A stretch of DNA of 64,000 nucleotides from Leptogorgia sarmentosa (GCA_964658305.1 OZ210885.1:2666001-2730000), one strand, 5' to 3'. Counted from the first letter of the stretch, positions 6,801 through 64,000 are shown. The notes: generated from the letters alone by a model not told the origin. A program made the numbers and translations.

Positions 6801-8905
6801 ACACAATTTGCTGATCTAAATAAAGAAAAAGTGCAAATGATTTGCATTAGTATCTGTCAACCATTCCCAAATCGAGGTTTTCGCAGGCTTTTGATCTTGT
6901 TACGGTATCTCCTCATAGAATTTAATGATTTAATTCGTTGCTTAATTTTCTGTTGCTCAATTGAATTTGCTTTGCCGCGAACTGCCCAGGTACACAATTA
7001 GATCTCATTTGGGCTAGAAGATCGCCTCTGAAGCAAGTAATTAACTAGGTAAGCAAGGAATCATGTTGACGTTGAATTATAGTATTCAGCATGAATACTG
7101 TCGTGAAGTGATGTTTATTTATCTAGACGCACACTGACAGTCACGTGAACAAATCCATTCTTATAAGTAATACTTGATAAAACATTTTTATTGCTGTTAG
7201 TGGAAACGAAACACAAATATATTATAGTATAATCATTTGACTTTTATATTGAGTTAGGTTGGGGACCGGTCATTATTTATAGCAGGGGTGGGCCCTGAAG
7301 AGAAAATGTTTTAAAGACAAAATTTTTTCTTACCCCACTTTCTTTTTACGAAAATTTTTTCTTACCCCACTTTCTTTTTACGAAATTTTTTTTTTACCCC
7401 ACTTTTTAAAACAAGGCAAACAACTTGATAAATAACTGGGATTATCACTCAAGCCGGAACAAGTTCCAAAATTTGTGCAAGCCGTCTTTAGCTAGTGGTA
7501 CCTTCTCATATCATATTTTACCCCACCCCAGACATGCCTAGTTATTTAGCTACCCCACCATTCTCTCTCTTCGTCCCCCACCCCTGTCATAAATAATGAC
7601 CGGTCCCTTAGCTTAGTAAATAAGACAATTCATAACATATCCCATTCATATTGCATAATGATGACTCCATAATGCTATTATTATGTTATTGTATGAGATG
7701 ATGAATAGAATAACTACCTGAAATTTTTGGAATATATTGTGCCACAATTTCATTTATTGCTTCTTGCAATGCAGTGTCAACCTTTGCAGACGCCATCATT
7801 TCATCAAATGCTTTACGATTTTTCTCTTTTTCTACCATCCTCATCATCCTGTGCAGAGAACCTGCCATCCCTCTTCCGGTGTTGTACTTTTCGTTTTCTT
7901 TTACCAAACTTCTCCATTTACGAATGGACGAACTCAAAAATGAGTCCCCAAACTTTTCACGGAAAACAATTAGATTAACCGTTACATCATAATTGGATTG
8001 CGAATAGCCACATGTTGTTGTGACTAGAACATTTGCGGTCAGATTCCTAAAATTCTTCTTTTGACTTCCTAAGTGGAATCTTGTATTCAATCTCACGATT
8101 CCTGTTTTATGATCAACAGTTATAACATTCCAGAACCAAAATCTGCCTGTCCGAAATTTCGTTGTACAACCAGTTGATGACGTCTCGATCTTTCCAAGCG
8201 GGCCAGACAACACATCTTCTGTCGCCAAGAATGTATAGGTGGTTGTCCGTCCTACAGTGAACACGCGATAAGGAAAATCAATGTTGATGCATTCAAATAC
8301 ATTAAAATAATCACAAAGAGATGGAAGAAGACGATACTGCTTATTAAAAAAACTCCCCTGTGAAAAAAACTGTGGTCAGAGATTACAATCTGATCTGCAA
8401 CTGCAGCATTATCTTTCATAAATTCACTTTTGTTTGGAAAGTTCGCTGTTTAGGTGTAACGTGTTCCTTGTATACAGCTAATTCGGGAAAGATTGTCCCC
8501 AAAAAACCTTAAACCTTAAACTTTAAGCGCGCAAGGTGAGATGGATAACTATTCATCTGTCGTGAAACATCGTGAAAATAAAATGTCTGAAATGTGCATG
8601 GTATATGTTATGTTCGATCTTTCGATAATTTCAGTTTCAATGGAAATTTTTGCTAGTAAAGTCAGCAAAGTTACTAAAGTATTAAAAAAGGGAAAACGTG
8701 TTCCGCAAAACAAGTTGGCCGGCTCACGAATCACGAGAAAATAAGAAAACACTTTCACGAGGACGGGAAAGTGCCAATTCACGAATCACGCAAAAAGTAA
8801 ATCTAAACTCTCATTCACGTTTCACACAAATATCTAAAACATACCTCTACTGCCAGGCAAAAACCCAAGACAAATTAACAGAATTAGAAGCGGCGAAAAC
8901 TTCAT
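3707..8905 (-). CDS. Secreted animal heme peroxidase A (peroxidase-cyclooxygenase superfamily) with cadherin-like N-terminal domain and C-terminal 8-Cys exon; 3' end uncertain
   Basis: Manual model, exons 8845-8905 ([20 protein letters not shown] signal peptide), 7718-8251, 6374-6815, 5416-5639, 4012-5151, 3707-3831; GT-AG introns with matching phases. Motifs: MQFGQFLDHDL (distal His), NTAFVDASQVYGS (Ca site), AGDVRTNEQ (distal Arg/Glu), AFRFGHS (proximal His), IQRGRDHG, GDRFYYE. Core exon boundaries are conserved in paralog B. Confidence 0.88.
7262..7607. mobile_element. MITE in intron 2 of peroxidase A
   Basis: Perfect 19-bp TIR GGGACCGGTCATTATTTAT / ATAAATAATGACCGGTCCC, extended by CAGGGGTGGG; internal short tandem repeat; absent from the paralog intron. 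Confidence 0.85.
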
Positions 8906-9050
8906 GGCTACAATGATCCTTCGTGCCTTGCTTCAAAACTGAATTGAATTTTGAAGTTTTCTCTGCGCTTTTTATACTCTTTCGTTCTTCACTTCCTTGT
9001 CAGTGTTCGTGCAAACTCCACCCAGTTTTTTTCCTGTTTCGCCGCAATTT
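8906..9050 (-). promoter_or_regulatory. TATA promoter/5'UTR of peroxidase A (shared promoter family)
   Basis: TATAAAAA at 8969-8976, 71 nt upstream of ATG; 5'UTR motif CGAAGGATC; alignable to the other three promoters. Confidence 0.7.
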
Positions 9051-9230
9051 AATAAATTAACTCGATAAGTGACGGTGGGTGTAGCGACAATGCGACAAAA
9101 ATACACCAGCGTTGCTGCGCAAAGAGTCTTTTTCCATCGACTTCCTACATTGTTCGACTTCCTTCATTGCTTTGCATGATATAGCGGAGGGAGAGTCCCA
9201 CGCCAATAGTAGCTCAAACTAAAGTTAATA

Positions 9231-9366
9231 AAGCCCATATCATACGTTAAATTTTCGTCTCATATGGAATGCAATTCAAACGATGGAAAATGAGGCAAGT
9301 TATAGCATTATCCCTTGTCTGAATTGTATTCGATGCGACCAAAATTCGACATATGAAACGGGCTTA
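9231..9366. mobile_element. Degenerate palindromic MITE, same family as 43982-44123
   Basis: AAGCCC...GGGCTT ends; shared core GAATGCAATTCA...AATGAGGCAAGTTAT. Confidence 0.7.
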
Positions 9367-9682
9367 AGGCAATGACTTTGTTAGAGCTCATTTTCAATTA
9401 GTCCAGAGCGAGGCATGAACCAAAATCGTTGACTTTATCATAATCAGTGAATCATATTTGCAATTTTTATCGCAATATCCAGTGCAAATTTCGTTTATAT
9501 AGGAATCGTAACTGGTTTACTCGCTTATACATCAATCAAAAAACAAAATCGCACACAGAACAGTGTAAACCCTTGCAGGCCTTCAGTCGCAAACTTTGGA
9601 AGTTAGACAATTCATAATTCATGCATCATAGTGTAATGGTGTGGACTTCAACTAAAAGATACTTTCATGCTATGACGAAAAA

Positions 9683-9790
9683 TCGTGGTTTATACGCTTA
9701 CGTTCGCTTTTTTTTCGACTGCATTTCGAGCCCTTTTCGTGGTTTATACGCTTACGTTCGCTTTTTTTTCGACTGCATTTCGAGCCCTTT
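9683..9790. repeat. Perfect 54-bp tandem duplication
   Basis: TCGTGGTTTATACGCTTACG...GAGCCCTTT starts at 9683 and 9737. Confidence 0.9.
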
Positions 9791-15809: not shown

Positions 15810-16396
15810 TGAATTTAACTCTGCTAAATCGGAGACGTTTCTTTCGACCAGCCTGGTCTATACTGAAAGAGAAAGAGGAAAAGTCCGATTAGTAAGTTTA
15901 ACTGACTTAGTTGCAATTAGTTGTTTCTAAATCTTAAACACATCCGTACACTAATTTGTCTTTAAAATGTTTATAAAAAATAGCGAAAAAAACAAGAATA
16001 AGAGAAAACAGGATGGAGATTATATAAAATTAAGTTTAACAACTTGTCAATAAAAGACTATATAGATTGTTGCAAAAAATTGTGATTTTTATACACGTAT
16101 GGGAAAATACGTCGACATTAAGTTAAAGATGTACTTTAAGAGATTCAATTAAAGCTTGTTCCAGTCAACCTTTTGGTTTGATCATGTTTTTAGGAATCAA
16201 TTCACTTACGTTTATAGTGACAGGTATTACATGTCTTCCTACAAAACGCCTTAACTGCTGGCCGTGTATTGCAGAACTTAGAATGGGCAACACAGAAGGC
16301 TGGCAAGCTGTCTCCACAAGCTAAAACAAACATTAAAAAAAGAGAATGAGCCGAGAACTCACGCATAGGTATGATATAATACGTGCATGGTTCAAT

Positions 16397-17034
16397 CTAC
16401 GGCTTACCCAAATAAGCACCCCTCTGAATAGAGGTGGGGTTTATCCAGCGATGGTAAGCCAGATCAACTGCGCCATCTCCATTCAGTTCCACAAACCTGG
16501 CTCCAAGATCTCTGTACCCGTTAGCAGCGATATGGAACGGTGGTGTCCACTGAGGCACAGATCTCCAACCTCTGCCTGTGTTCACATAAGCGCCCTTCTG
16601 CTGATTATGAGAGTTGATCCACCGATGGTAAACGAAGTCGATTAATCCGTCACCAGTGACGTCAGCAAACCGAGCTCCCAAATCACCATGTCCGTTGGCA
16701 GCAATATGGAAAGGAGGTATGTAGGATGGCGTCCACGTCCAACCATGGCCATTGTTGATGTATGCTCCCTTTTGCTGGACATTACTGTTTAGCCAACGAT
16801 GATAAACCATGTCAATTCTTCCATCTCCATTAAGATCAACGAACCGCGCTCCTAAATCACCGTGACGATTTGCGGCAATATGAAATGGGGGCGTGAATTG
16901 GGGAGCCCAGACCCATTTGTATCCGTTATTCAGATATGCTCCCTTCTGCTGTACATGAGAGTTTACCCAACGATGATACACCATGTCTATTCGGCCGTCG
17001 CCATTCAGATCTACAAATCTAAAGAATATTATTT

Positions 17035-17085
<51 letters not shown>

Positions 17086-17771
17086 TTGTATACTTACCTT
17101 CTCTAAAGTAAAAAAATTAATAAAGGAAAAAAGAATTCACTAACGAAATTGCAGTTACTGATTACAATACCTCGCTCCCAAATCGCCATGGCGATCAGCT
17201 GCAATGTGAAATGGTGGAGTAAAGAGTGGGACCGACTTCCAGCCATTTCCCGTATTAAGATAAGCGCCTTTTTGCTGTCTTTTGGAGTTTATCCAGCGGT
17301 GGAACACAAAATCAACTTTTCCGTCACCATTCAATTCGATAAATCTAGCGCCCAAATCGCCATGCCCATCCGCTGCAATATGAAAAGGTGGTGTAAACTG
17401 GGGAGCCGATTGCCAACCATTCCCGGAATTCAAGAAAGCCCCTTTTTGTTGAGTTTTGCCGTTGATCCATCGATGAAAGACAAAATCGATCTTTCCGTCT
17501 CCATTGAGCTCGACGAATCGTGCACCCAAGTCTCCGTGGTTATCGGCGGCGATGTGGAATGGAGGAGTGTACTGAGGTGCTGAGACGAAGCCCACATTCG
17601 CAACATTCAGGTAGGCGCCCTTCTGGATGTTGTGCTGATTAATCCATCGATGGAAAACTTGGTCCATTCTGCCATCGCCATTTAGGTCAACAAAGCGTGC
17701 CCCCAAATCACCATGGCGATCGGCGGCAATGTAAAAGAGAGGAGTGAACTTTTCAACAAAATTCCAGTATC
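16397..17771 (-). repeat. Seven ~58-aa coding repeats (consensus W..P.FTPPFHIAA..HGDLGARFVDLNGDG.IDxVxHRWIN...QQKGAYLN.G.G)
   Basis: Seven (D/E)(L/V)(N/T)GDG..D loops counted across two exons, joined by a phase-2 intron at 17019-17170. Confidence 0.92.
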
Positions 17772-20700
17772 CTTAAAAAATATCAAAATTCGGGTTTTTC
17801 ACCAAAATTCTCACGAGGATAAATCCGCAGCTACCACGAAACTTCCGCATTGTACCTTTTAATTCTTCATTTGAAATAGACTCGATTCATTGGTTCTAAA
17901 ATAGTATGTTGTAATCCACCCTCTTACCTTCCTCAGGACGGGGAGTGGTCATGTACACGCAAGAATTATTAGGCTGCATGTAGTTGTAACATATAAAAGC
18001 AACGAAAACGTTTGACGTGCCAAAGCAATGATTACTCTCAAACTCTTCTAGTAGTTCTTTTAGTGATATTAACGCCAACAATTTATTTATTCAAAGATGT
18101 GACATACCTGGTGGTGCACCAACGTCTGTTGATCCTCCACCATCACTTTTCCATTCTTTCAGATCGATGCCGGGTATTCTACCACAGGATACTCGGTTGT
18201 ACTCAGAGCCAGCAAGGAAAGAATCCCTTTGGACCGATACGATATTCTCTAAATTATCACAGAGGATTCTTGAAAACGATGTCCTTCTAATCTCAATTAA
18301 CTGGTTTTCAGAAAAAACACCTTTCTTCTCGTAGAAAAACCTGTCGCCATCTCTTACGCGTCTCATTTGTTCGCGAATAATACATCCAAATGTTGCACCA
18401 ACGATCCCGCCATTAGCTGGTGCTTCTGCCAGACCTGCCACCCATAAATCAGCCAGGTTTGGATCATCATTATATAACTGTGAGAGCAATTTCCTGTTTT
18501 TTAAATCAACGATTTCTTTCGATGTATCAGTGAAGGATGTTGCATTCTTCAAACCGCATCGCACCCTAAACGCGTTATAATCAGGTAAGCCGTGATCTCT
18601 GCCTCGCTGAATGTTCAGTGCCGCAAGGTTTAAACCAGGAGATCTTGGACGTTCAAATAAGTTATTTAATAATCCATCTGCTAGCTGACGGTCGACCGTT
18701 TGAGACTGGTTTCCAAGTAAGCCCAATAGTAATGGTTCTATGCCAAACGTGTTGATGAAAGTGTTGTTGAAAAATAATTGGCGTAAAGGTAAAGGATCTC
18801 CTGTTGGGTTGAAACCTTCATCCAATCGATCAAATGTTGGTCGGATCAAGCTGTGTCCAAATCTAAATGCAGCTGTAGAAAAGGAATTAAGAATGCCGGG
18901 GTTGACTTTATCATCATAATTCTTATAGTCTGGAAGAGTGTTGCCAATGATGACTGGTAGAAAATCTTCATATGTGATTTTCTGTAAAACAGCTCCAACG
19001 ATTTTTCTTGTTTCCTGGTAGACCTTCTCACTGTCCCATTGCGGGTTAAGTTGCTGTAGTTTCCGTGCGATTCTATTGTGTTCTCGGAGAAACAAGGTGT
19101 GCATAGATGTAAGAACCATCTGTTCATTGGTTCGGACATCACCAGCTAGGAAGCAATCAGGTTCGCACAAATTGTTGGGAGTCATGCGTGTCATGTTATC
19201 TTCAGGAAGAAAATCTCCGCCGATCCCTGTTAACGTTGTCGTCTTGAGCAATGCTTTGTCTAGATATTATGATAAAAATAACGCATGTGGTTATTGTTGG
19301 ATGTTTTTGTAATAGGAATAGAAATCGTTGTCATTGGGCACAATCAGAGAGCAGCGAGAAATTTTCTATGAAATTGCTATTTTATTCGCCGTCGCCTATT
19401 TTCCTGCGTGTGAGCAACAAGATAAACTTGAGGTGATGTTATAGGAGGAGTACAGGTGGATATGTTTATGTCAATTAACAAGCAGGGAACATTCTACGAA
19501 TACAAACATGTTGAAGCTGGTTTCGGACAAGGCACTAATTTCCAGCCCTCGAAATGTCAAATCTTCTTGTAATGATGACTAAATCCTTGGTTCGTTATTT
19601 TTTACAAAACATTGTAATTCTAACAATAATTTGTTTTATATTTATAGTTTGCCTACTCACTTTTCGAATCTGTTAAGTTTCTTGCCAACTCCTCGCTAGA
19701 TCCATAAATTTGTGATCCATCAATAAACGCCGTGTTGACGTTTATTTGTTGTTTGGTGGTTATACGGTTTTTTCTATCAATGATGCATTCACTTGGAGAT
19801 CTTGCAAAATGAATGGAGTTGAATTTTGCAAATGGTAGGATTGTGTAACAGGGTGCACGAAAATCTTCTTTTGATCCATCACCACTTTAGAAACAGAAAA
19901 TAATTAGGTAAGACGTTTTTCCATTTAATACAAGAAGAATGAAGAAGTCATGGTCATTGCATGAAGAAGTATACCTTGTCAATGTGATTGCACTACCAAC
20001 CCCCCACCACCTCATGCTTTCCGGCATGAAAATATTTCGCCAAAAATATTTGCGTAATTCTTTTGATGTTTATCTTTCAAAGAAAAATTTGTTTTCAAAT
20101 TCTAAAGTGTCGATTCCAGTTTTTAAAAATTATTAAATTCAAAATTTAACGTTAGTGTAACTCGCAATCCCCACCGATCCAGTTGAACCGCTAAAAAGCA
20201 TGCGGTTGGTGTCGTTGGTGGTCCCCCCAAGGTTTTGACGATGGTCCCAACAAACAGGTGCTGTAAAAGTTTTTTAAAAATTAGGGCAAAATTTGTTTAT
20301 GTATATATAGCCTTCTTATATGACCCAACCCTATCCTAGCCCATGATCACCCAAAATTTGCTAAAAAATAGAAAAACATGACGCTGAATAATAGAAGATA
20401 AAAGGCTTTCAAGAGGAACACCAACTAAACTACCTTGTCTTCATGCATCTGTCAGAATTTTCGCTTTCAGGAGAGAGACCAAAATCGTGGTCCAAAAATT
20501 GTCCAAATTGCATGACCAGATGAGAAAACCTCCAAATGGGCATCTGAGGTTTCTTCTGTTGTGCGATAAACTCTTTAACCACTTCAAATGTTGCTGGAAT
20601 ATCTGGGACATTATTTTGACCTGGAAATCCAATGGGATCTTTGAATCCGTCGGGATCAAAATATCTTGCAGGTAACCAACGATTGAGTCCTGTAGTCGCC

Positions 20701-22673
20701 GACCCCAACAAAGGATTCTTGAGGTTATTACACGTTCCATCGATTGTTCTATATTGGGCATTCGTGGGACATCTTGGAGTAGGTTTACTATTACATTTCG
20801 CAGCATTGGACAATTGTTGTAAAGCTTGTCTTGAAAATAATGTATTTAGTTTCCACCGAAACACAATTTGCTGTTCTAAAGAAACCAAAACATTAAAGAT
20901 TAAAAATGACATCAAACATTCCCAAAGAGATCCTTTCGTCAAAGTACAATACACGAATTAATTATTGCTGATTTGCTGATTTTTTGTATAATAAGTACCT
21001 ATTACATATAATAAGTAATAAAGGCTTGGTACAATCAGCAAACGATGTAGTGCTTTGCAGTTGTAGTCGTAGTGTACAAACTGCCTGGCAATATTTTAGA
21101 CTTTAGCAATAAACTTAAGTCATGTCGTTGAATGTAGTTTAAAAACAGTGACTGTGTATCATCCATTTAATTTGAGGCATTTAGAGAGGCAATGTCACCG
21201 ATTGTCCGCAGGTTACACAACCAGGTTTTAATCTCGAATAACGACTTTTATTATTCACTTTAAAGTATTCTCAATTTGGTTGGTTAATTTAACTGCAATT
21301 ATCTGTGTACAAAGCTGAACTGCGTTCAGAAGACGATTTGTCGTCCCTTCTTGAAGAAAAAATGCAGGTAATTTAACCAATCAAAATTAAGAATAATGAT
21401 AAGTGAATCATTATACAACAATTGTTGATTTGATTTTGGTTTTCCAATGCGAATTCATAAAAATACTGTCACCGTAGTAACATATCCTAATCATCGTAAC
21501 TATATTCTAATCATTTTGTACATTTTGCGTTATGATTACTTGAAATACTGTACCACTTAGCGTTAGATGGCTTATAGAATAACTACCTGAATTTTTTGTA
21601 GTAAATTTTTCGGCAATTTCATTTATTGCTTCTTGCAATGCAGTGTCAACCTTTGCAGACGCCATCATTTTGTCAAATGCTTCAGGATTTTTCTCCTTCA
21701 CTACCATCCTCATCATCCTGTGCGCAGAAGTTGCCATGTCGCTTTGGGTGTCAAACTTTTTGTTTTCTTTTACCATACTTCCCAATTTACGAATGTACGA
21801 CTTCAAAATAGAGTCACCAAAGTTTTTACGGAAAACAAATAGATTAACTGTTACATTGTATTTAAATTTCGAATAATAACCACATGTAGTTGTAACTTGT
21901 ACATTTGAACTTAATTTCTTTAAATTGTGCTCGTGACTTCCAAAGTGGAATCTTGTATTGAGCCTCACGATTCCCGTGTCATTGTCAACATTTATACCAT
22001 TCCAGAACTGAACCCTGCCAGTCTGCAGAAATTTCGTTGTACAACAGGTTAATGACGTGTCAATCTTACCAAGCGTGCCAGGCAACACATCTTCTGTCGC
22101 CATGAACGTATAAATAGTTGTCCTTCCTACAGTGATTGGCATAAATAACAAAGATGCAACTATTTGTTTACCAGCTAAACCTCAAGCGAAACCTCGTGAA
22201 TCTATTGTAAACTAGATTCAATGATAATTATTATGCTGTTGGGTTGGCATATACATCAGCGATCTTACAAAAAAAAGTTGTGTTTGTTAGCTGTTTCATA
22301 CCAGTCCATTTTTGTTGTTTTTGATTTACGTTACCGTTCACATGAACAATTTGTTGTTATAAAGCTGCTTACTATTTCCTAGATATTCATAATTATACTA
22401 ATCGTTTCTCATATTATTTTGGATTTCGGTTCGACAAGCTGAAATTTAGTAACCACTGAAACTTGGTGATATCTCCGTGACATAATAATTAGAATTATAA
22501 AACATCCACATATTATTGTAAAAAATATGCTCGTATGAATTCTGAGTTCTGTCAATTCATTTACGAAACTGTATGGGGGGGGGTTAAATAAAATCAGCAT
22601 TTTAAAACTTACCTCCATTACTGGGCAAAAATCCAAGACAAAATAACAGAAGTGTTAGCGATGTGAACTTCAT
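16397..22673 (-). CDS. Secreted animal heme peroxidase B with cadherin-like N-terminus and C-terminal seven-repeat FG-GAP/VCBS-like beta-propeller
   Basis: Exons 22613-22673 ([20 protein letters not shown]), 21587-22126, 20434-20875, 19661-19884, 18108-19259, 17171-17771, 16397-17018; all phases compatible. Same catalytic motifs as A (QFLDHDF, GDVRTNEQ, FRFGHS, QRGRDHG). Donor CCAG|GTATGT at 18108 joins acceptor TTTTAAG|GA at 17771 in frame. Confidence 0.88.
17035..17080. repeat. (AT)n microsatellite in last intron of peroxidase B
   Basis: Direct reading. Confidence 0.95.
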
Positions 22674-22825
22674 AGTCACAGTGATCCTTCGCGCTTTTCT
22701 TCCAAAACGATTTGAACTTTTTAGGGTTACTTGCCTTTTTTATACTGTCTCTTTCTTTCTTTGTTTCCTTGGCAGTTTGGTAAAAAACATAAGGTGTTTT
22801 TCCTGTATGTTTTCCGGCATTTAGG
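22674..22825 (-). promoter_or_regulatory. TATA promoter/5'UTR of peroxidase B (shared promoter family)
   Basis: TATAAAAA starting at 22744, 71 nt upstream of ATG; CGAAGGATC; upstream TGCCGGAAAACATACAGGAAAAA box. Confidence 0.7.
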
Positions 22826-38318: not shown

Positions 38319-38465
38319 GACCACAGCGATCCTTCGTACTTCACTTCCGAAGCGGTTTGAACTTTTCAGTCTTCCTTTGCCCGATTTTATATTCTTCCTT
38401 TGTACACTTTTTTATCATTTTGTGAAAAGACGAACATTTTTCTCTGCATGTTGTCCGGCAATTTT
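38319..38465 (-). promoter_or_regulatory. TATA promoter/5'UTR of astacin 1 (shared promoter family)
   Basis: TATAAAA starting at 38391, 73 nt upstream of ATG; CGAAGGATC; upstream TGCCGGACAACATGCAGAGAAAAA box. Confidence 0.7.
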
Positions 38466-42453: not shown

Positions 42454-43981
42454 TTATTTTGTCAATTTGCACTTCAACAACGTTTGTTAAAACATTGCTT
42501 ATGTTGAAATAGTGACCCGGTTATAAAATCAGTTTAATAGGCCGTTTTTAGCTAATTTGTGAAGGTTTCAAAATTGTTAACAAAAGTTTAACTGTCGAAT
42601 GTACCAAAATTTAAGCAGTGGCGTTGCCAGACCTTCATTTTTTGGGGGGGGGCGAATTTATATTTAAATGGCGAATTACCGCGTACTATGGTTTTTGAGT
42701 TATAAGTATACAGTTGTACTTTTTTTTGCGCCACCCGCGGTATATAAGCCATAAATATTTTCAATCAAATAACGAGCGAATGATATCTTGCTGACCAAAT
42801 TGCCTGCAATATTTGTACACGTTTTGCATCGTTACATCTTGTAAAAATTGAAACAGACACTTTTTGCGTAAGAGGCAGATTTCGGGAAGTAATTTTAATT
42901 TATCGGTTTCGCCAATGTCACTCGTGTAATTCTTGATTACCGATTAATTATCTGGTTAATCAGACACAATGTACGTACAGTACATTCCAACACAAACAAT
43001 CTTTGTGTATGTATAGTTTTTGTATTTAGCTTCCTGGCTATTGTCTGTCTGATAATGATAATTAAAAAGCTGTGTAGAAGGCCGATGTTTTATTTATTCT
43101 CTGTTTAATTTGCTTTTTTCTTTGTCACTCTATACAAAAGATGAAAAGCTTTCTCTGCATGCTTTCCGGCAGTCAAGAAAGCCGAACTCACTTTAAGTCA
43201 CATTTTTGGGGGATTAGGAGGAAGGTTAATTGGAGTTGATGCATTCCAACTGTGCTTAATCTATGTTTCACAAATTTTGTCTATGACTTGCGCATAATTT
43301 TTGTGTGCGTCCTTTTGCTAGGACAGTTATAGTTAATAATACGAATCGGAATCATTTGCTTGACCACGATTCGGAAATATTTTTGAAGTGTTTTTTACAG
43401 TTATAAGCCTACATTCATACATAAAATCTTCAGTTAATGAATAGCGACATTACTCGATTGAATGAATACTTTCGCTTTACTTGGTTGAACTTGGAAACTA
43501 TTGGTAACCTCACATCCCAAACCCGACTAAGAATATAGTTACGACGATGCATCATTGAATCCGCCGAAACAATTTGTGCAGCAAAATATTGTTATATTTA
43601 AATTTAAAAAGCTTGATAAACTTAGGGGTCGTCTCGGCGACGAATTCCATCATATCCTTTACGCCGACGTAACTACCGCCTACCGAAAAAAATTGAAATA
43701 ATGGGCCCAGTTTCCCTAAGGGTAGAATTTTTATTGTCTTACGTAATTGTTAGAGTTTCGAAAACTTTTTGAGCTGAAATAATCGCTGCAATTATATTTA
43801 AACTTCCTGACTTGTTTTGCTGGCAAAACGTCAATTCTTATAATTTTTATAAACCGTATCGTTCAGATTGTAAGTAGAATTTTTGCTGCTTGTCTTGTTG
43901 AAAGGGTACCATTCTCATCTATAGCTAGTTACGCGTTAACGTATATACGCACGTATAAAATATAAATACCTCTGTATTTCA

Positions 43982-44123
43982 GGCCTGTTTCAAACGTCGA
44001 ACTTTAGTCGCGTCGAATGCAATTCAGACAAAGGATAATGAGCTGATAATGAGGCAAGTTATCTCATTATCTATTGTTTTAATTGCATTCGACGCGACTA
44101 AAGTTCGACGTATGAAACAGGCC
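43982..44123. mobile_element. Palindromic MITE with TCA target duplication
   Basis: GGCCTGTTTCAAACGTCGAACTTTAGTCGCGTCGAATGCAATT and near-perfect reverse complement; TCA on both sides. Confidence 0.85.
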
Positions 44124-45808
44124 TCATTTTAATAATAAAATATTACCTTTAGAAACACATACTACATCATTCAAAGTATGAGAGGCTTTACATTTATCCA
44201 TGTGATTCTATAGAAATTAACTAACGTTAAAATCAATTAGCGGAGTTTGGATCCATGCAGTTAGTAGCTAGAAGACGACATGCAAAAATCCACGATCAGC
44301 GCCAAATTGAATATGCCAGTTCGCTCTCTTTCTTTACAAAATCAATTGGTCAGATGTAAAGAGGATTAAACAAGCAAAATATACTAGTACTTGATAGCAA
44401 GAGCTTAGAGTTCATTCAATGTTTGAGTGTTAACTAGCTACGTTTCTTAATGTGCCGTGGGAAGAATGATGGTCCGTCACGATTGTTGTCAGACAAAAAA
44501 AACGTTTCGCTCTCCTTGTAAAAGTGTCAAGAAATGTAGTATGTGGACGTACAATCTTATAAGGTATGACAAAATGAACACGATTATTATACAGGATGAC
44601 TCAGAAGAAAACGGAACTGCACGCGCAAAAATTAATTATGTAACTATTCCCTCAAATTGTTGTTCACAATGATGCAATTATTACCTATACAACAGTTGAA
44701 CTTGAACGTTCTGTGATGTTATGATATAACATGATAAAATTTATAGACACATTACTAATGCTCAAAAAATTGTTTTAGTTTACAAACTAGCTCATCTGCA
44801 CTAAACTAATGAGTCCCAAAAGGACGAAACGATTCAGTCTGTAGTTATATATTAATAATATACATGCAAACATTTCCTTTTATGGATGCATACTCTACCG
44901 TAAGACAAAATAATCTTTGAATCCATTATTATACTTGCAATTCATTTTTTTTATGCTATTATATATAATCATTTGGCGCCTCGTGCGAGATTTCCCCCAA
45001 TCAAGTTCCAAAACCTTTCACATGCGTAGGCTGGCTTGGAGTATGTTCCGTTATGTCAATTGCCGGAAAACATGCAGGGAAAAATGTTCCTGTTTTTCAC
45101 AAAATGATACATATTTCACAAGTAGTTACGACGATGCAACATTGAATCCTCTAACACAATTTGTGCAGCAAAGTATTATCATACTAGAAATACATACATG
45201 CAGCAACCCCTCGCTCGTCTTACTAACGTACCAAGACTACATTAAACTCAATGCACCTATATTCTAACAACATGAAGTACTCAAACATTGTCGTCATAAC
45301 AACAACACGGTAATTCATGTTTTTCCGTATTATTTTTTAAAAATGAAAAAATAATGGAATAAAATATCAGTCTTTAACCTGCTTCTTATAGAATGTTTTT
45401 TAATTTGCAGAAGATATGTCACACTAATGTCATTAAACCTAAACTTGATGTAAATTATTCGCATAAGACGTTTTGAAATGTTTTAACTTCAGAAAATTAT
45501 ATTTTTATATCATACAAAATTATAAAAACTGAAGTTTTTATAAAAAAAACAGGGGGTGTGGAAGTGTAGCGGGATAATAAATCGAGCCCTGGTCAGTGGT
45601 AATTCTGTGAGATTTTCGAACCAGTTGTCATGGAAATAGCGTCAGCGGATGCCAAAATCCGCCATTATTTTGGCTTCACTCTTTGTTCGCGTGCGCTTCC
45701 TCCAGTAATTTAAATATCAAATCGATATTTGAAACGTTCTGCACTAAGTATTGGGCTGCATATGCACGACCCTCTCAATTTGGTCTCAAAACTGTCGTGT
45801 TCTCCTAA

Positions 45809-48800: not shown

Positions 48801-49335
48801 GCATATGGTGTTTTTGCTCTGTGTCTTGGCTTGTTGCTAGTAATGACTAGCATATGAAATGAACACTATGGGCACAGTATACCTATACAGTAGTTCAACT
48901 CATTGTTTTTTTGTAAGCTGTATACGTCATGATTCGTCACTCAGCAAGTGCCCTAAACAGAGGCATTCACCCCCCTGGCAATACTCAAAATGAATAATAC
49001 TCAGGGGGGTGACTGCCTCTGTTTAGGGCACTTGCTGAGTGACGTATACAGCTTACAAAAAAACAATGAGTTGGACTACTGTATAGGTATACTGTGCTAT
49101 GGGAATTAGAATTATTGTCATTGTCACTATTATCTTTGTACTTTTTGTTTTGCAGATACTAAAAAAATATGGAACCGAATGGATTGTCAGTATTGAAGAC
49201 ATCACAGAGTTTGTCAAAGAACAACATCAGACATTAGACCGGATGGGTGCAGAACATGTGCTCGTTGCCAAGGAAAGAGTGTATCCACTGAACAACCAAA
49301 AAATCACTGAACAAATTCGCCTGGATTCGTGCTGA
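45809..49335 (+). CDS. DUF4291-family protein, 4 exons
   Basis: Exons 45809(or 45842)-46050, 46767-46938, 48191-48313, 49156-49335, phases consistent. Motifs recalled for DUF4291: [72 protein letters not shown] at 49499-49504. Confidence 0.85.
48873..49096. mobile_element. Fold-back MITE (~100-bp arms) in intron 3 of the DUF4291 gene
   Basis: CACAGTATACCTATACAGTAG...CTACTGTATAGGTATACTGTG; CTATGGG directly repeated on both flanks (7-bp TSD). Confidence 0.9.
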
Positions 49336-53644: not shown

Positions 53645-56600
53645 TCAACTTAAACGCAAACTAAAGCCACATGATTTGCAACAATTGTTCGCCATGTATT
53701 TTACGTATTTTTTCACACAATATCCAAGGTTTCTCCAATATTGGCAGTTCCGATAAGACTGCCTGTCTCCTCTACAAACTTCAGAAGCTGAAAAGAAGAC
53801 GATTATAGGACGCGTGAATCAACAATGCTAACGACTTTAAAGCGTTAATTTTGGAGGTGATTATTGGCGGGCTCTTCCAAAAGATATTCATAATAACAAA
53901 TGCCAGAAATGTAAGACGTGGTTTGAATAAATTAACTCTATAAGTCGATAATGATGCCGTGAAAGCTATTATTTTAATAACATGGCAGAGACATGGCAAA
54001 AGTTAATGTTTCTCGCCATTCATGGTCAATCTTAGGCTACGTTTACATTAACCGGTCAGCTATTATTCCGGATAAATATTATTTCTTCGCATGAATGCGT
54101 TATACAAATCTGCAAGAAATTCGTTCGCTTCCGCTTTCTGGTTACAAGAGTTACATGACCTTAATATTAGGGTTCATGATACGGAGCGTGACAAAAGGAT
54201 TATACATTATAGAAATGATAGATTACATGTGGTTACATGTGGTTGCATGTGGTTACATGTTACATGTGGTCACATGTGGTTACATGTGTTTACATGCGGA
54301 CAAGCTTTGGTCACAACGTCGGGCCTGAGGCAAATCCGCATAAAAAACGATTTCGCGTTTACGCAGTTTTTATCCGTCTACATTTTTAACTAGTACGCTT
54401 TCCCAGCAGCACGAATATTCCTTCGGATGCTATGTCAAAAATTCCTGCGGATAGCAATTTTTAGTCCATTCCTTCCTTCACCTCTTGAAAGTATTCTTAC
54501 CATTGCATGCACTCATGAACATTCATTATTTGTATAATAGCTACCACGCCACCATTTTTTGACTTGTACAGTTAGTTATTTAAAACCAAGTCTGACATTT
54601 CTGGTGATGACCTAGCAATGTAAAAGTTGTCTTACCCCCAGTGCTACATGTTCTGCAACAATTTTCCTTCAAGAATTTTGCATATCTATGTCCTTGCTGA
54701 CAATATCCACGTGCTTTCCAGGTTAGACAGTTGTCAGAAGACCTCTTGTCAGCTGTACAAACTTCAGTAACTGAAAAGAGAACGATTATTCCACTCGTCA
54801 GTCAACAAGGCTAGCAGCTTAGTTTCAACAATCTGACCATGCGTGATGTATCAACAGAAAAAGGGACAACATGGTATTCGGTTCGGGATTAACCCATCCT
54901 AGGGCCGGGGGCAACTATGGGACCATGATTCGGTGAATATGAAACATGCTCAAATCAAAATTAAAATCTTGTCCATTAGGACTAGATCATTAAAAATAAT
55001 GAACACAGTTGAACACTGGTAATGATATTTTGTGTTCAATACTAAGAAGGTTGAGGATTGATATGTTATCGTTTTCTACACACGTAGATAGTTCCTTAAT
55101 TGTTTAGGACGCTAGAAATTTTTAGTTTGCTTTGACTGGCGTGCATTTGTCGGCAGTGGCGTAGCCAGGTCGATAATTGGGGAGGGGGGGGGCACATATT
55201 CATATATTCATGTTCACATACTGTGAAAACAATCGATTTCGAAAGAAATTAATTGGGCAGAACATGAATATAGGAATATGTGTCCCCCCCCAATTATCGA
55301 GCTGGCTACGCCACTGTTTCTCGGGCCGGTAAGCAAGCTTTGAGCTGGGGCCGGGAAATGCCCCCATTGCCCTTTAGAAAATGCGGGACTGATGGTATTA
55401 TAGCCTCTTCCAAATATTCATAATAAGGCCACCTCTGAACATTTTTTTTTGTTAAAAAAAAAGGGTTTAAAAATTTTCATACCTCCAGTGCTACATGTTT
55501 TGCAACAATGTTTCAGCACGTATTTTGCATATCTATGTCCTTGCTGACAATATTCAAGGCGTTTCCAAGATTGGCAATTCCTTGCAGTCTGCAGGTCAGC
55601 TTTACAACCTTCAGAAATAAAGAGGACGATTATTCTGCGCGTGAATCAACAATGCTATAGAGATTTTAAGGCCTTTGCGCGTCGTAGTGATAACGAAAAA
55701 ATTACTGTAAATAAAAGAGAAATGGAGAGAATGAACTGAATTTTCACAACCATCACAAAACATGAGATCCACATGGTATTAGCTATTACAAGTTAGCAAT
55801 TAGAGTAGGGCCGACTCGTTTTGAGCACCTCCTTGTCATTATGCAAGAGATCTAAAGACGCAGGTATAGAAGATTATTGAAAATTTAGACTTTATGACTG
55901 CTTGTTCCTGAGCCAAGTTGCGAACGACACAACAACGCGCCGTGGGTGAGGGTACTAATTCCTCACGGCTATTTGTCCCCGGGCTAAGTAAAGCATAGGG
56001 CAGCGAAGTTCAATGTCATATCGCCACCAATTTGGGTTATTGATCAAAGTGTAAGGGAGGTCATCACTGATCTTAAAAATATGGCGGACTTTCAATATCA
56101 TGAAGAGCAAACACTGAAGGCTTTCGAAAACATGAAAACGACGACAATTAGAACTAACTGCTGCAAGAAAGTCACACTTCTGAGAAAATATAAATGTTAC
56201 GAAAACGCTGGAAAAATGGAAGAAACGACTATGGTTTGAAAGACAAGATACGTTCGACAATATAATTTTGGAAGTAAATTTTTGTTTTGCGTATTTGCTA
56301 TTTGTATGCATGAAAGGTCGTCGAAGCCGCATTATTTTAATGTATTCACGCTTTAATTCCACAGTAGCTATATAAGTTTATGTTTTAAATGCAAAATATT
56401 TACAGACTTTACCTTTCAGAGAATGCAATCGAAGATTGGCTAGAAATTGTTTCATTTCAAAACATGACTTAAATATTTCAAAGCGTTTTGTGCAAATAAT
56501 TGCAGTTTTTCGCACTGTGGCCATTTTCAAGTTCATAATAAATTAATTTTATTACACATAACAATAACGTACGGACATCAATGCTCCTCTAAATTAAAAG

Positions 56601-59600
56601 AAAAAGTCAATAAAACCATGATAAAAGCTGATAATTTGTCCGTTTTGAAAAAAATGTACAGGAATATGATTATATGAATTGCCGAATAATCGCGAATATA
56701 ATAAATTACACTATTAATATCATTGTAGTCAATTTCCTGGACGCTGATTGGCTAAAAAGCTTCAACAACTGTGCAAATTAAACATTAATTGCACAGGTAT
56801 GCACATTAAACTTAACTTAATTGCACGGTTTCGAGCCCGCGATACATTATAAAAACAAATAAATAAACGCTTATCAACGTTAAGCCAAACACGCGTGCAA
56901 TTTTTCATTAATACTTCTCGAACCGTGTAATTTCCTGTACATATATCAATTCTTTATGAGAAAGATCGTAGCTTGTTCTTTCGTACATGTCTATTTTCAG
57001 GTAAATTTTTAGGTAATTAATGCCGAAACATAAACATGATAATTAATTTAGCTAATGAGCTTAATATGAAAAAGAAAACAAGGACAAAATATTAACTGAG
57101 TGTGAACTGTGATATCTGTGCTGGAAATTGTTGACTGAGGTGTTTTATCGCGAAGTCTATGCGATAAAAATCGAAGCAATACATTCCCGTACAGACCGAG
57201 CAAACAGGTTAATGAAGGATTTATTATAATTATGGCTTTGTTCGATCGGAGTTTCTTTAATCGGCTTTGTATAGAAAGAACCAGAAACACTTTCACTGCT
57301 GAAACTTTAGACGAAAATACTGGCGGTTGCCTCTAATTGATCCATCTTTACATGCAGGATTCACTGTCTTCCTTTTTTTCGCTATTCCCCTCCAAACAAT
57401 CTATATAGAGATGCTTTGCGCTTCGCTAAACAACCCAGCCGGCCAGTCCCCGCCTCGACTGGGAATACCCTAATATACATCTTACAATAACTACCTTTGC
57501 CTCCCTTTGATCCGCAATACATTGTCTTCGCTTGTGCAACATCACCATCACTTAGTCCTTGCCTCTGTCCAATACTAGCACCATTTTTTGCAGTTATTGT
57601 ATTCCTTCCATTTCTTGAGAATGCCCTAGGACCATATTGCATTATACTCGCGTAATCATACCCATGCGATTTGTCGTCTGTTTGACCGGTAAGTTTGCGG
57701 AAATTATGTTCTCTCCCTGAAAGGTATATAAAATTTAACACATTCGTGGCAATGTTGATAACACTCGAAACACATCACAACAAAAAAACATTAAAAATAT
57801 TGCATTATCATTTATGAGCAAAAATAGTTTCTTAGAAATAATATGTTCGCATATGTTTAAACTATACTTTGGTTGCTGGGTGTTCGTTTACACCACATCA
57901 GTGTATTTTGAGTTGTTAAAAGTGTATATTAACAAGGTTATGTGTAATTTCACACTAAATGAGTGTTGACTTATTTTAGATCAATCAAGTGAAAAAACAT
58001 TTCGACTTAACAGCACATTGGTGTATTTTAACTTGTCGTTGGTGTAATTTTACACTATGCGAAGTGTAAACTTACACTCAAAAGAGTGTTCTACATTTTA
58101 CACTAATCAGGTGTGTATTTACAGTCTCACAGTGTACATATTTTATCTCGCATACACCCTTTGGTGTAAGTTTACACAAAAATGAGTGTCAGCAAGGTAT
58201 TCCCTTGCTTTACACTAAAGCAGTGTTACTTGTACACTGAGGTGGTGTCGAACTACACTGCAATAATGTAATATTACACTTGAACGGTGTAACCTTTCAA
58301 TTTACACCTAATCAGTGGATGTTTACACTTTTTTGGTGTTGCCACAACACTGCCAAATTTACAGTGTAGTTGTCTAAATTGTAAATGGTAGGTTACATAG
58401 TCTTTATGCAAAGTTGGACTTGGCATTATTGCCGTGTGGTAGAAGTTGTGAGAAGAAGCAGGTGCACGCCAAACGGGAAAATATCCGACTTTATGTAAAC
58501 ATTTGAGAATGTACTATACTCGGCGAAAATAGATGAAATTTTCTGAGAATTATCGCCGACACGTGATCTACAATCAATTTCGGGACACCACTTGTATTAG
58601 GACATCAGAGGACATGTGCATGTTAATATCATTTATAGACCCGGAGCGAGGGGGGTTCGGCGTAATATTTCCCGAAGTGATGATATTTTCCGAGGGGCTC
58701 TGCCCCAAAGAAAATATCATAACTGAGGGAAATATCGCTGAATCCCCCGAGCCGAGGGTCTATGAATGATATATTATACTGAACAAAACATTTTTGCTTC
58801 TTTGTTTTCAGGAATTCGATTTATTTCTTCCTCCTCTCCCGCCATTTTCCATAGATATGCTAAGCGCGTGTTGCCCACGCGTCACGCGTGAGCGTGGAAT
58901 ACTATAATATCCCACGCTGTATCTGCCGTGGGATATTATAGTATCCCACGCTGAATTGCAAAATCATGAATTTGCGTGAAATACCGTAAAAATCACACTA
59001 TCACGTGGTACAAATGCTGTTTTTTCATTGGACAATTTGAATTTGAGGTATAATATTTGAAAAAATAAAATTGTTTCGGCTACACTTAGGTGTATATTTC
59101 TTATATTTCATCGCACTGAGGTTGGTTTCACGTAGTTGTTATAGTGCCGCTGAATTCGCTAAGCTTTGTATAACAGAATGAAAGCACATAAGAGTATACT
59201 AAATGTTGTTACATAATATATAATAGTAGCTAAATTATAAAAACTTACCGCGTTGGATATTTTCCCAATGTATCGTTAGATATTCATCACGATCTGAGCG
59301 AGACTGTTCGTGCCAAAATCCCAAAGCATGGCCTAAAATACATTTTAAAGAAACAATTGAGGAAAAAGGACAGAAAGTTTGGGGAATTAATCACAGTTGC
59401 CTAACAGGTTAATAACTAAAATATATTTTAGCGCCACAAGACCGCAGGATAAGACTTAGCCGGGGAAGGTGAGCATCACCTTTGCTGTTGTTCAAATCCG
59501 CCACAGATAAAAATACCATTTCTTTTTTCACAGAAACATATAGAAGGTAGAAATGGAAAGAGGCTGCTAATCATGATCATGCGTTTTACTATATTCAGAA

Positions 59601-62600
59601 AATTTATCATATTCATCACTGATTTCCAGTAAACTGTGAGGATTGGTTGCAAAATATCGTAAAATGTGGAAACTACATAATATTATGCAGTCATGTAAGC
59701 CCAGGTTGCAAAATTCCAAATTAAACTATTTTTAAATTTTGGTTCCTTTTTCCAGGTGTGATAATGATATGATTGGTAATTAATACAATTCCTAATTCAA
59801 AAGTTTGTCTAACTGTGGAATGGTCCATTGATTTTATCGCAAATAAATGAACAACATTTTACGAACCGATTTCGTGAACAATAATTCCATGGTGCATACA
59901 TCCTCGTCCAAGGGAAATTTCTTGCCGACGTTTTTGGAAACCAACATATGACCAGCACCTGAATTAATATATAACAATCCTCGATTAGATCTTTGTTGTT
60001 CTTTATATGCTCGTTAAGATAATTAATATTGATATATGATAATTAATATTATTATTATAATTAATATATAATATATTTAATATTGATATGTGCTCTACGT
60101 ACGCTTGCCATGACTTAATAGTGGAACTCACCCGCTTCCGACAATAAAGTAGATATATCCTTGTCCGGAGCTGAGATGACTTCGCAATTGTACGAAACGT
60201 AAACACGGAACTTTATTCACCCACTCTTGTGTTGCGTTATAGATTAGTTGGCGATGTCTTGACGATGAAATAGCTGCATGGAAATATAAGTATAAAAATT
60301 AAAATTTAGAACGCAAAGTAGAAGTCAAAGTGACAACAAATCTACAGATCTTAAATCTTAATCGAATCCTTAGATCTCATTATAGACACAGTGCTCAATA
60401 CAAACAGTAGAGCAAATAAGAAGATTAGTGAAATATCTAAATGTAAGTTTGTTTTACTCTTATTCTTATGTATACTATTTGGATGGCATGCGCATGTTTC
60501 AGCGTTTACGCCTCATCAGTGCAGCTTTATACATGTGTAGATAGGTGACGACCCGATATATAGCCTGCTGACGCATACGTTAACGTTTGGGAGGTATCTG
60601 TCCAAGGTCATGAAAATCAAAGTATCTCCCTAGCCGGACCAATTAGCAAGGACGGTATAAATAACGCGTTTATTAATTGTTCCGCCTAATAAGACGAAAT
60701 TCCGGTGTTGCGAACTAGATTTGAGATTAGTTGTATTTGTTACTTCATTTCAAGTATGGTTATAGCCGAAACGACAATCCAAAATAGCTTTAATATCTAT
60801 GCTCTGACCCATGCGAAGGCTCTTATAGAAAAGTTGCGGTCGGGTTTGGGATCGCCAACAACAACATTTTTGCCAAACTGTTCCTTATATCCATTCTAAC
60901 TTGCTATCTTGAATATCTGTGATACAACTTAAATCACAATGCAGCGCGATCGGCTTTTTTACTGTGATGGACTTGACCCTGGCTGTGCAAATAAATTTTA
61001 TTCAAATTTAGAAGATGGCTTACATGACGAGATGTAATATCGTATTTCGTGTTTGCCATTCCTTTCTGGCCAAATATGGGCTTTGTTGTTTGAGGCTGCA
61101 CCACGTTTCCGATTTTCAATCATTTCTTTCATTGATTTTGTCTTGACGATGTCTCCCTCAAAATACTCTTCTTTATTTCCTGAAAAATGTTTGTTTTTAT
61201 TGTTGAGCGCTTGTCAACATGAGGACTCATACAAAGCCGGTTTTCCACTTGCGAATTTTGTTGCGCGTATTGGATTTTTTCGTGGTGAAATAGTTCGCGC
61301 GACTAGCTCTTTGTTTTCCACAGCTAAGTGCGGAAAATACAAAACAAAATGGCGGCATGGAACAGCAGGAGACTCTTCTTGCTCCGAAACAACTTGCTAA
61401 GATTGCTGCTGCTCAGCAAGAACAGACGTACAAAGTATAAGAAAAGATTTTGGATACGTCGAATATATCACTGAACAGCAATTTTGAAACTGATCTACTT
61501 AGTTCGCGACTTTTTTCACAGCGAAAAAGTGCGAACGAGTAGGAATCATTCGAACTCCTTTTTTCGCCGTAGCCAAAGGTTCGCGAGTTTATCGCGAAAT
61601 AATATTAATGAACACGATGCGTGTGAGCGAAAAAATTCGCTTTTCGCGAAAAAATTCACAAATGGAAAACCGGCTTAACAGTCGCCTGCATTTCAATATT
61701 TTGTGCGAAAAAAACCTGGTTTAGCCACAGCAACCCTAAGAGTTACGCACGTCAAGTAATTACATTATAATAGTGGAGGGGACTTATATATGGACTGTAT
61801 TTTGTGTTAGCCAGTTATTAGTGTCGCCTTAAAAGATGAATAGGATGAACGATCTTTTCGTGAGGCTATTACCTTAAAACATGGGAAAGATACGATTTAG
61901 AATGGTTTGTGCGTTTGTGAATGTGATACTTATACAAAGGCGGGCTGATATTTGGAACGTTGTGAGCGTAAGTAATATGGCTTATCTATGGGAGGGCTTA
62001 TATTCGGGGGCGGAGTATAGTCGGAGGTTCACGGTAGTGCTTTTCTTTCCTGTGCGAGATCGTGATTTTAATTTTGTTGGGATTTGCCGGCATTGAAAAA
62101 CAGAGTGGAAACACAGAACACGACTAGCACGACGTCCTCCTCTCTCCCCCTCATGGTCATCCTGCTCCACTGTCTTTGATTTCGACATATCATTCATAAC
62201 TACCTGATTTCTGCTCGGCCTTCTCGTTTATTGCCTGGATTTTGTCAAACGCTGAGTTGTCTTCTGAATTGTCGTCAAAATTTTCTATGGAAAAAATTAA
62301 CAATGAATTTTAGATGAAACCTAGTCCAACAATTTTGAAGATGCAATTTCATGAAATCGTACATCTTCCATCTTCTTATATAAAGAGTGAAACTATACGC
62401 CAATTACGAAAACAGTATATGTGTTTATACAAAACAGATTATTTCAAGATCATGATAAAATCGCTTTAATTCACTTACCATTTTCAAAATTTTCATAAAT
62501 TTCTGACTTGGGGAACCCTAAAATGGGGAAGATTACAAAATTATCGCGTCTTTCTGTCCTCAATATATTATATATATTTATAATGGATATAAATATATTC

Positions 62601-63783
62601 TTATAATAAGGTTTTGAAATGGGTAAATTTGGTTTTTAGAAAGTCACATTTTTCACAAACAATCGCAAAGCGCTGTCTCTATTTTATCTATATCATAATA
62701 ATTATGTTGTCAAGTTTCAATTCCTTATGCAATTTGATATGATCGCGCGAATTCCGAAATGCGAGTCATGAAAGCTTATATCAAGTATTGAATACGTCTC
62801 ACGTTTTAACCACGCAAAACCTCACGTCTTGAAAGGAATTAGTATTTGCGCTGTTCGCCTATTCCCTAGCAGTAAACCATTTTATACATGCATGCAAGAT
62901 CACGTATTAGGGACAGGTAAGATGCGTGTAACAAAAAGCTGAAAACAAATAAGAGTTGATCACCAAGCTACATAGGCGCAGATACATGTCACTTTGTGTA
63001 CCTATTTTTTGGTGTTATCACAACACTGCCAGATTTTCAGTATGCAGTTTCGAAACCGGAAAACAAAGCAATAAAAGCCAAAATGGCCGACGCAAACTGT
63101 TTAATCTAATATTATTTTAATCTAATAAATGTTGAATTATTAGAAATACATGCAGTTGTGTGTCGTATAATAAATTCCCTCGGGCTCGGAAAAATACTTA
63201 CGAAACTCGTAAAATACCAGGCCGTATTGCATTTCAAACCATTCAATAAGCTATATGTACATGTAAGTCGCATGCAATAAACTGCAAGATATAAATATTG
63301 GATCTGAGATCTCATGGCTCGTCTGCCCAAACAATTCCATAGATAAAAAATGCTCAGTTGGAATAGTCTGTAATGTGTGTGCACTACCTGTTAAGATAAA
63401 TTTTGGGAATATAGCCCTCAATTCATTCCATGTTAAAAATCTCGCGAAACCTAAACCGCTTTAAGACTTTTCATCCGTTTAAAAATTATGGAAAACTTTT
63501 GGGAAACCTATGATATTATATGAACCTACTAAAGACGGACGGCTTGTCGTTTAGACCGCTATACCCTATACCTGTCGAAGGGGCCCCAATATCAGTTGGC
63601 AAAATCGGCCCGACCGCAAATCACTGTTTGTAGCTAAACCTACGGCTTTCAGCAAGCTATAAAATTTTGCCAATTTCGAAAACTGCGCAAAATAATTTTC
63701 AAAAATTCTATCTTACCTTCACTGCCGGGCAAAAATCCAAGACAGAATAACAGAGGTAAGATTGTCAATGATGCAAACTTCAT
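53645..63783 (-). CDS. Astacin (M12A) zinc metalloprotease 2 with three ShKT-like domains (paralog of 27659-38318)
   Basis: Exons 63717-63783, 62204-62284, 61024-61179, 60132-60273, 59867-59958, 59249-59332, 57495-57716, 55483-55608, 54636-54770, 53645-53787. Same motifs ([32 protein letters not shown]), frame intact, same C-terminus [12 protein letters not shown]. Confidence 0.92.
55154..55316. mobile_element. hAT-like MITE
   Basis: TIR CAGTGGCGTAGCCAG / CTGGCTACGCCACTG with longer internal symmetry; 8-bp TSD TTTGTCGG / TTTCTCGG (7 of 8 match). Confidence 0.85.
58627..58771. repeat. Long imperfect hairpin in astacin 2 intron 6
   Basis: TATCATTTATAGACCC...GGGTCTATGAATGATA outer arms; TGATATTTTC / GAAAATATCA inner arms. 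Confidence 0.7.
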
Positions 63784-63930
63784 GACCACAGCGATCCTTC
63801 GTACTTCACTTCCAAAGCGATTTGAACTTTCCAGTCTTTCTTTGCCCGATTTTATATTCTCCCTTTCTTTATCTCTTTATCATTTTGTGAAAAACAGGAA
63901 CATTTTTTCCCTGCATGTTGTCCAGCAATT
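63784..63930 (-). promoter_or_regulatory. TATA promoter/5'UTR of astacin 2 (shared promoter family)
   Basis: TATAAAA starting at 63856, 73 nt upstream of ATG; CGAAGGATC; upstream TGCTGGACAACATGCAGGGAAAAA box. Confidence 0.7.
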
Positions 63931-64000
63931 TACATACCGGATCATCCGCCAAGCCATGTGAAAGGAACTTAATTGGGGGGTGGTCTCGCACGAGGCGCCA

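Follow-up and report, generated by a model that had tools for sequence, protein, structure and literature searches.

Two haem peroxidase and two astacin genes of the octocoral Leptogorgia sarmentosa share a promoter-like region and a predicted signal-peptide exon, probably through one old head swap

In the sea anemone Anemonia viridis, the toxins ATX-I and ATX-III are unrelated products with a conserved signal region, an arrangement attributed to gene fusion (Moran et al. 2009, via the review PMC3447340; this and the other published accounts are cited here from excerpts). We analyzed a window of 64,000 nucleotides (nt) from the octocoral Leptogorgia sarmentosa (GCA_964658305.1 OZ210885.1:2666001-2730000; the window is this whole stretch, and positions are counted from its first letter), in which two haem peroxidase genes and two astacin protease genes, each pair labeled A and B, begin with the same promoter-like region and predicted signal-peptide exon, here called the head. 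The preliminary description of this stretch had proposed that the heads have a common origin and were captured by an unrelated gene body, and both proposals are supported by non-coding homology and by the unrelatedness of the bodies; its further proposals, co-regulation and a cassette portable in the sense of repeated moves, are conjectural. We consider it probable that there is one homologous head and that one local event, a duplication or a deletion that would have broken intron 1, likely passed it between the families. Selection then likely preserved the head, and duplications of whole genes likely increased its number. The mechanism is already known, in a cnidarian too; the feature itself is real, partly backed by a transcript, and best read as one old head swap. 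New here is the probable swap between peroxidase and astacin genes, while the kind of event has been described before.

The waprin and Kunitz genes of snake venoms reportedly have a signal exon in common. Unrelated secreted domains in this system were traced to one gene by recombination in the flanking introns (PMC5010889); unlike the enzymes of our window, those domains are small inhibitors, and a fused intermediate between them is known. Like ATX-I and ATX-III, the genes studied here are cnidarian and encode two unrelated kinds of secreted product with a common signal region. However, the toxins are short sea-anemone peptides, whereas here two large octocoral enzyme families are involved, with several paralogs each, and the similarity extends over some 145 nt of non-coding sequence upstream. 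At the REST locus of mammals, a merger of neighbors placed the SEMG2 promoter and signal-peptide exon on a PI3-like body, as seen in guinea-pig Svp5 and rabbit SVP200 (PMC7556508). They too are composite genes within a cluster, but the displaced PI3 first exon persists there in intron 1 and gives the direction of the event, whereas no such relic was found at this locus. In Schistosoma japonicum, a similar core promoter and signal sequence occur on several genes for secreted egg proteins (PMC3434034); that case involves 34 dispersed contigs, a proposed repeat-mediated spread and products without known homologues, in contrast to the few copies and two ancient enzyme families here. In chimeric genes of Drosophila yakuba, partial tandem duplication, a mechanism proposed here too, shuffles 5' ends and alters expression (PMC5460883); those genes are young and polymorphic and their expression was measured, whereas the present arrangement is old and known from sequence. 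Literature searches, with subscription journals mostly outside their coverage, returned no paper on this octocoral arrangement.

The four heads are as follows.

8840..9051, minus strand: head of peroxidase A, with a degenerate box, TATA box 8976-8970, 5' untranslated region (5'UTR), signal-peptide coding exon 8905-8845 and phase-1 donor.
22608..22823, minus strand: head of peroxidase B, with box 22819-22803, TATA box at 22744, 5'UTR and coding exon 22673-22613.
38253..38465, minus strand: head of astacin A, with box 38460-38444, TATA box at 38391, 5'UTR and coding exon 38318-38258; present in a spliced contig of sequencing run X4.
63712..63933, minus strand: head of astacin B, with box 63927-63911, TATA box at 63856, 5'UTR and coding exon 63783-63717, which has a 6-nt in-frame insertion.

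The positions and peptides of the four first exons, all on the minus strand, agree with those in the preliminary description, as do their lengths (61, 61, 61 and 67 nt) and the GT donor in phase 1 in all four; these lengths are the coding parts alone, exon 1 also containing the 5'UTR. From the start of the TATAAAA motif to the ATG, the distance is 71, 71, 73 and 73 nt, within the 71 to 73 nt given earlier. The upstream box, said to be clear in three genes and degenerate in peroxidase A, matches with one mismatch in peroxidase B and none in both astacins, and peroxidase A has no match within three mismatches. Each head region was cut into six segments, and all six gene pairs were compared with 200 dinucleotide shuffles. 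Numbering from the ATG, the segments -145..-75 and -74..-1 and the coding exon beat all 200 shuffles in 6/6 pairs, so that the proposed homology through the non-coding 5'UTR and TATA region holds. Between peroxidases and astacins, identity was 58 to 68% in -145..-75, 68 to 73% in -74..-1 and 70 to 79% in the coding exon. Segment -217..-146 was at chance in all six pairs and intron 1 in five of them, the exception being astacin A versus astacin B. The common unit is about 210 nt long, from box to donor, and homology stops at the donor and above -145; apart from this head, the peroxidase genes have no DNA similarity to the astacin genes. A gapped pattern of the UTR and exon occurs at exactly four sites in the window and at none in 100 shuffles. 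From the hydrophobic core of exon 1, an export signal is predicted. An Rfam scan gave no matches, and a sigma-70 promoter scan, irrelevant to a eukaryote, was empty.

An excess of phase-1 introns close to the cleavage sites of signal peptides is a general finding (PMC1626468), as would suit convergent signal peptides; an assembly artefact is the other trivial explanation. But the homology takes in 145 non-coding bases, unrelated signal-like N termini score at most 34.5 versus 70 to 91 inside the head family, and separate contigs bridge head and body. Refuted by the shuffle-tested non-coding homology and by the bridging contigs, convergence or artefact retains next to no credibility.

The bodies that follow the heads are all on the minus strand.

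3707..8251, minus strand: body of peroxidase A, exons 8251-7718, 6815-6374, 5639-5416, 5151-4012 and 3831-3707.
16200..22126, minus strand: body of peroxidase B, with an N-terminal domain exon (22126-21587) and peroxidase exons 20875-20434, 19884-19661 and 19259-18108.
Minus strand: 3' part of the peroxidase B body, with FG-GAP repeat exons 17771-17171 and 17018-16408 and a ShK-like exon from 16320.
36324..36362, minus strand: astacin A exon 2, 39 nt, phase 1-1, accepting the head; AG/GT flanks; end of the X4 contig.
36026..36106, minus strand: astacin A exon 3, 81 nt, phase 1-1, putative propeptide; with it, the exons account for all 597 nt of the spacing in the X4 contig.
27660..34813, minus strand: later exons of astacin A, 34813-34655, 33249-33111, 32991-32897, 32340-32257 and 31844-31569.
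Minus strand: ShK exons of astacin A, 29679-29554, 28650-28516 and 27801-27660.
53646..62517, minus strand: body of astacin B, exons 62517-62479, 62284-62204, 61179-61024, 60273-60132 and 59958-59867.
Minus strand: body of astacin B, continued, exons 59332-59249, 57716-57495, 55608-55483, 54770-54636 and 53787-53646.

These bodies are unrelated: Pfam places them in An_peroxidase versus Astacin, no DNA match joins them, and the best cross-family tblastn hit has E=0.72. An_peroxidase (PF03098) matches both peroxidases (E 3e-121 and 5e-120), in peroxidase A on exon 5151-4012, and both contain the three motifs of animal haem peroxidases, presumably the distal His, distal Arg and proximal His. The peroxidase A frame is open for at least 842 codons, its 3' end not being fixed; peroxidase B is predicted to have 1,249 amino acids in an open frame, and the open frames of astacins A and B predict 445 and 428 amino acids. 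Both astacins pass the Pfam Astacin cut-off and have an SxMxY motif, which we take to be the Met-turn, next to the zinc motif HExxHxxGxxH of peptidase family M12A. This zinc motif is as given for astacins in PMC10828956. The two small exons of 39 and 81 nt, which come next after exon 1 and are kept in both astacins, had been missed in the preliminary description.

Assembled contigs of sequencing runs X1 to X4, none of which is recorded as RNA, were placed on the window, X1 to X3 being one sample. In an X4 contig of 1,071 nt and depth 42, bases 153-431 match the astacin A exon 31567-31845, and in an X4 record of equal length and depth, bases 1027-1071 match exon 1; that the two records are the same is inferred from this equality. 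The loose end past the exon 1 donor maps to 36347, inside the 39-nt exon, with no mismatch over 15 nt, and the intervening astacin A exons, including those of 39 and 81 nt, have a combined length of 597 nt, identical to the distance left between the two matches. One contig thus shows the head spliced to astacin A, with this exon 1 and not an alternative first exon. Of the proposed junctions of exons 1 and 2, that of astacin A is accordingly observed, while splicing of the head to astacin B and to both peroxidases is predicted. For one head copy outside the window, X2 and X3 run on into the GT donor and X4 into a different open sequence, as splicing predicts. Single contigs of X1, X2 and X3 span the head and exon 2 of peroxidase B, and therefore this linkage does not depend on the present assembly alone. 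X4 has no depth in the bin 22001-22601, over part of peroxidase B exon 2, which says nothing about expression. Head and body are collinear in both astacins, with intron 1 92% identical over 457 aligned nt.

Alternative signal exons ahead of the next modelled exon were rejected, none being convincing. Among 32 ATG-to-donor frames, seven have a hydrophobic core of 2.0 to 2.3, versus 2.9 to 3.8 in the true exons, and none has an upstream TATA box.

The homology between the two kinds of gene stops at an intron whose phase suits both. Phase 1 is the phase in which exon 1 finishes and also the one in which both bodies open, so that a direct join is in frame and needs no other alteration. On their common strand, the astacins are upstream of the peroxidases, and therefore either of two routes would need one event. 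A tandem duplication with one end in astacin intron 1 and the other in peroxidase intron 1 would place the peroxidase head on an astacin, with the peroxidase as donor; a deletion between the same two introns would place the astacin head on a peroxidase, with the astacin as donor. Selection would then have kept the head and whole-gene duplications would have multiplied it, and one capture followed by such duplications explains the four genes. Through the head, the two enzymes would have a common start site and similar export signals, and their expression would probably overlap in one secretory cell type. Co-regulation is plausible because tandem-duplication chimeras change expression in Drosophila (PMC5460883).

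The same gene order and strand, with all junctions phase compatible, would also permit read-through to have come first: exon 1 of an ancestral astacin would have been spliced to the downstream peroxidase as well, and duplication of the block with complementary loss would have led later to the same end product. This route needs more steps, no astacin relic was found in the first introns of the peroxidases (486 to 593 nt), and no such join is among the X4 matches listed. We therefore regard read-through as quite improbable.

For astacins A and B, the synonymous divergence (dS) is 0.14, the Jukes-Cantor (JC) head distance 0.12, and introns are 88 to 92% identical where aligned; for peroxidases A and B, dS is 0.33, the head distance 0.43, and intron 1 unalignable. 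From these sequence distances, the astacins are young duplicates and the peroxidases older. Cross-family head distances (JC 0.36 to 0.46) equal that of the peroxidase pair, and therefore the capture would be about as old as the peroxidase split. In the peroxidase pair, intron 1 scores 25 versus a shuffle maximum of 32, while the 150 upstream bases are 77% identical over 138 nt, which suggests selection on the promoter region. The break cannot be placed exactly because intron 1 is itself unalignable between peroxidases A and B. Ongoing gene conversion between neighboring 5' ends might keep the heads alike, since the genes are adjacent and the peroxidase B head is as close to that of astacin B (JC 0.36) as to that of peroxidase A (0.43). 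But conversion requires prior homology and thus cannot be the origin, cross-family identity is just 65 to 72% over the head, and the asymmetry is not significant; as an explanation, conversion is very improbable.

The head is not confined to the window. At 80% likeness to the astacin A head, at least 17, 20, 16 and 3 contig records were found in X1, X2, X3 and X4, respectively, and three listed contigs and one loose-end sequence bear variants seen in none of the four window heads. There are at least four more diverged heads outside the window, a low-copy family and not the high-copy repeat that the preliminary description had named as its possible undoing. Summed depth peaks at about 10 times the depth of a single contig, which is not a copy number. 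Two relics in the window consist of promoter only.

44974..45109, plus strand: inverted relic (45056-45109 in a narrower delimitation), a 138-nt copy of the astacin B upstream flank and box that stops before the TATA box, without exon.
43114..43174, minus strand: decayed relic, with the box, past which a weak likeness extends as far as a TATA-like stretch near 43090, without exon.

Both these relics, one of them inverted, and the four or more outside heads would suit a mobile secretion head that heads at least three unrelated families across the genome, its repeated moves being due to a transposon or to dispersed duplication through repeats, the latter as proposed for Schistosoma japonicum. 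A third X4 contig, moreover, continues into sequence not in the window, which may be exon or intron. However, no pair of sequences around the three heads examined (all except astacin B) can be read as terminal inverted repeats, and the copies are few (at least 16 to 20 contigs per run in X1 to X3). One outside head is spliced to an exon whose beginning resembles that of the astacin 39-nt exon, and a second has diagnostic bases in common with the peroxidase A head. The outside heads could belong to additional paralogs, which exist for both peroxidases and astacins; variants of peroxidase B exon 2 that differ from peroxidase A represent one further peroxidase. A mobile head thus has a slim chance of being correct. 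We entertain more tentatively than the single swap, as an unlikely reading, that the 210-nt secretion head of octocorals is reusable, includes a conserved upstream box of its own and has been grafted onto at least three unrelated enzyme families. If true, a cell-type-specific secretory or defence regulon would have been assembled by reuse of one promoter and not by separate gains of binding sites.

Searches with the head pattern in public contigs gave 3 viral and 110 metagenome matches; none of these 113 matched the head profile (best E=0.099), and they were discarded as chance.

Several points weigh against a single local swap. The exon 1-exon 2 splice of both peroxidases is a prediction, and X4 is taken to be RNA-like from its splice-exact joins, although its record does not describe it as RNA. 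Given the four or more heads outside the window, there may have been several captures. Neither a breakpoint scar nor a displaced first exon was found at the locus, and the best hint of one, the match of astacin exon 2 with its flanks to peroxidase B intron 1, was reached by 6/500 shuffles, in one of eight tests. The gene model of the nearest named peroxidase relative is without its N terminus. As to direction, the peroxidase B head is somewhat nearer to the astacins than that of peroxidase A, which leans weakly and non-significantly toward peroxidase B as donor; the peroxidase A head has 28 unique sites and that of peroxidase B 19 (p=0.24, not significant), and the bodies evolve evenly (27 versus 26). 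A more distant lineage of octocoral peroxidases, similar in its N-terminal region, has a leader of its own that is recognizable between two relatives (score 51). The leaders of these two out-paralogs rank 8 and 11 of 59 against the head, not above background, and this unlikeness leans weakly toward the opposite direction.

One debated proposal attributes the clustering of phase-1 introns at the ends of signal peptides to exon shuffling (PMC1626468). The locus offers a direct test of it, with an exon and promoter still alignable across two unrelated, intact enzyme families and a spliced contig behind them. It is also a compact test of enzyme recruitment by a secretory cell type, with four natural variants of the 145 nt upstream, one decayed box and two promoter-only relics. 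The axial skeleton of red coral contains a haem peroxidase (PMC7853314); the word astacin does not appear in the excerpt of that source, so that no shared function follows from it.

For the main peroxidase exon, the nearest named relative is a protein of the octocoral Dendronephthya gigantea (70% identity), other octocoral matches having 55 to 57% (best 120 of 3,039); among prokaryote genomes, bacterial peroxidases match with 39 to 48% identity (80 loci kept of 361). Related peroxidases bear fn2, trypsin, tectonin or cadherin modules, and because of this the family appears to shuffle exons readily. Exon 2 (22126-21587 and 8251-7718, minus strand) encodes a 179-residue region without a Pfam match. 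A HMMER search with it returned 26 proteins, and the 25 inspected are exon-sized frames without first exons. In a Nematostella relative, the matching part has a Cadherin match just above the cut-off; judged from sequence, the exon 2 region may be a degenerate cadherin-like domain. None of 261 candidates was retained when exon 2 was compared with longer proteins, none of 528 viral contig stretches matched the exon 2 alignment, and the ESM Atlas gave scores of only 0.77 to 0.78, leads at best. At the 3' end of peroxidase B (17771-16408, minus strand), two exons of FG-GAP_3-type repeats of about 58 residues, assigned by Pfam, precede the ShK-like exon; in peroxidase A, a short exon rich in Cys takes the place of this end. 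The repeats resemble those of bacterial beta-propellers, a likeness that appears in Pfam as a weak match below the cut-off.

Of the ShK-like exons of the locus, 2/4 scanned pass the Pfam ShK cut-off. Astacin A has an expanded Gly-Thr repeat linker (31640-31569, minus strand) between the protease and ShK domains, which astacin B lacks. The ratio of nonsynonymous to synonymous divergence (dN/dS) is about 1.0 for the astacin pair (77% amino acid identity, dS 0.14) and 0.35 for the peroxidases; the astacins (27660-38318 and 53646-63783) appear to be under relaxed or diversifying selection. A protein search with an astacin exon kept 6 of 22 candidates, none of them named as cnidarian, and yielded no astacin outgroup leader.

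A copy of the astacin A upstream flank (38481-38771), 67% identical, lies at 1012-1269, downstream of peroxidase A. It ends where the box would start, is followed by an AT-rich low-complexity tract and is possibly the trace of a lost gene. The locus has thus duplicated promoter pieces without gene bodies (44974-45109, 43114-43174 and 1012-1269). A multi-exon DUF4291 gene (45842-49335, plus strand) separates the astacins, and the inverted promoter relic, oriented like this gene, precedes its start codon by about 730 to 870 nt. Upstream of astacin A, the intergenic stretch is heavily rearranged, with a 1.2-kb tandem duplication of 92% identity (39715-40886 and 41307-42453). An element at 43981-44124 resembles a miniature inverted-repeat transposable element, with 62-nt inverted arms that are 92% complementary, and has related copies at 9227-9363 and 40944-41015.

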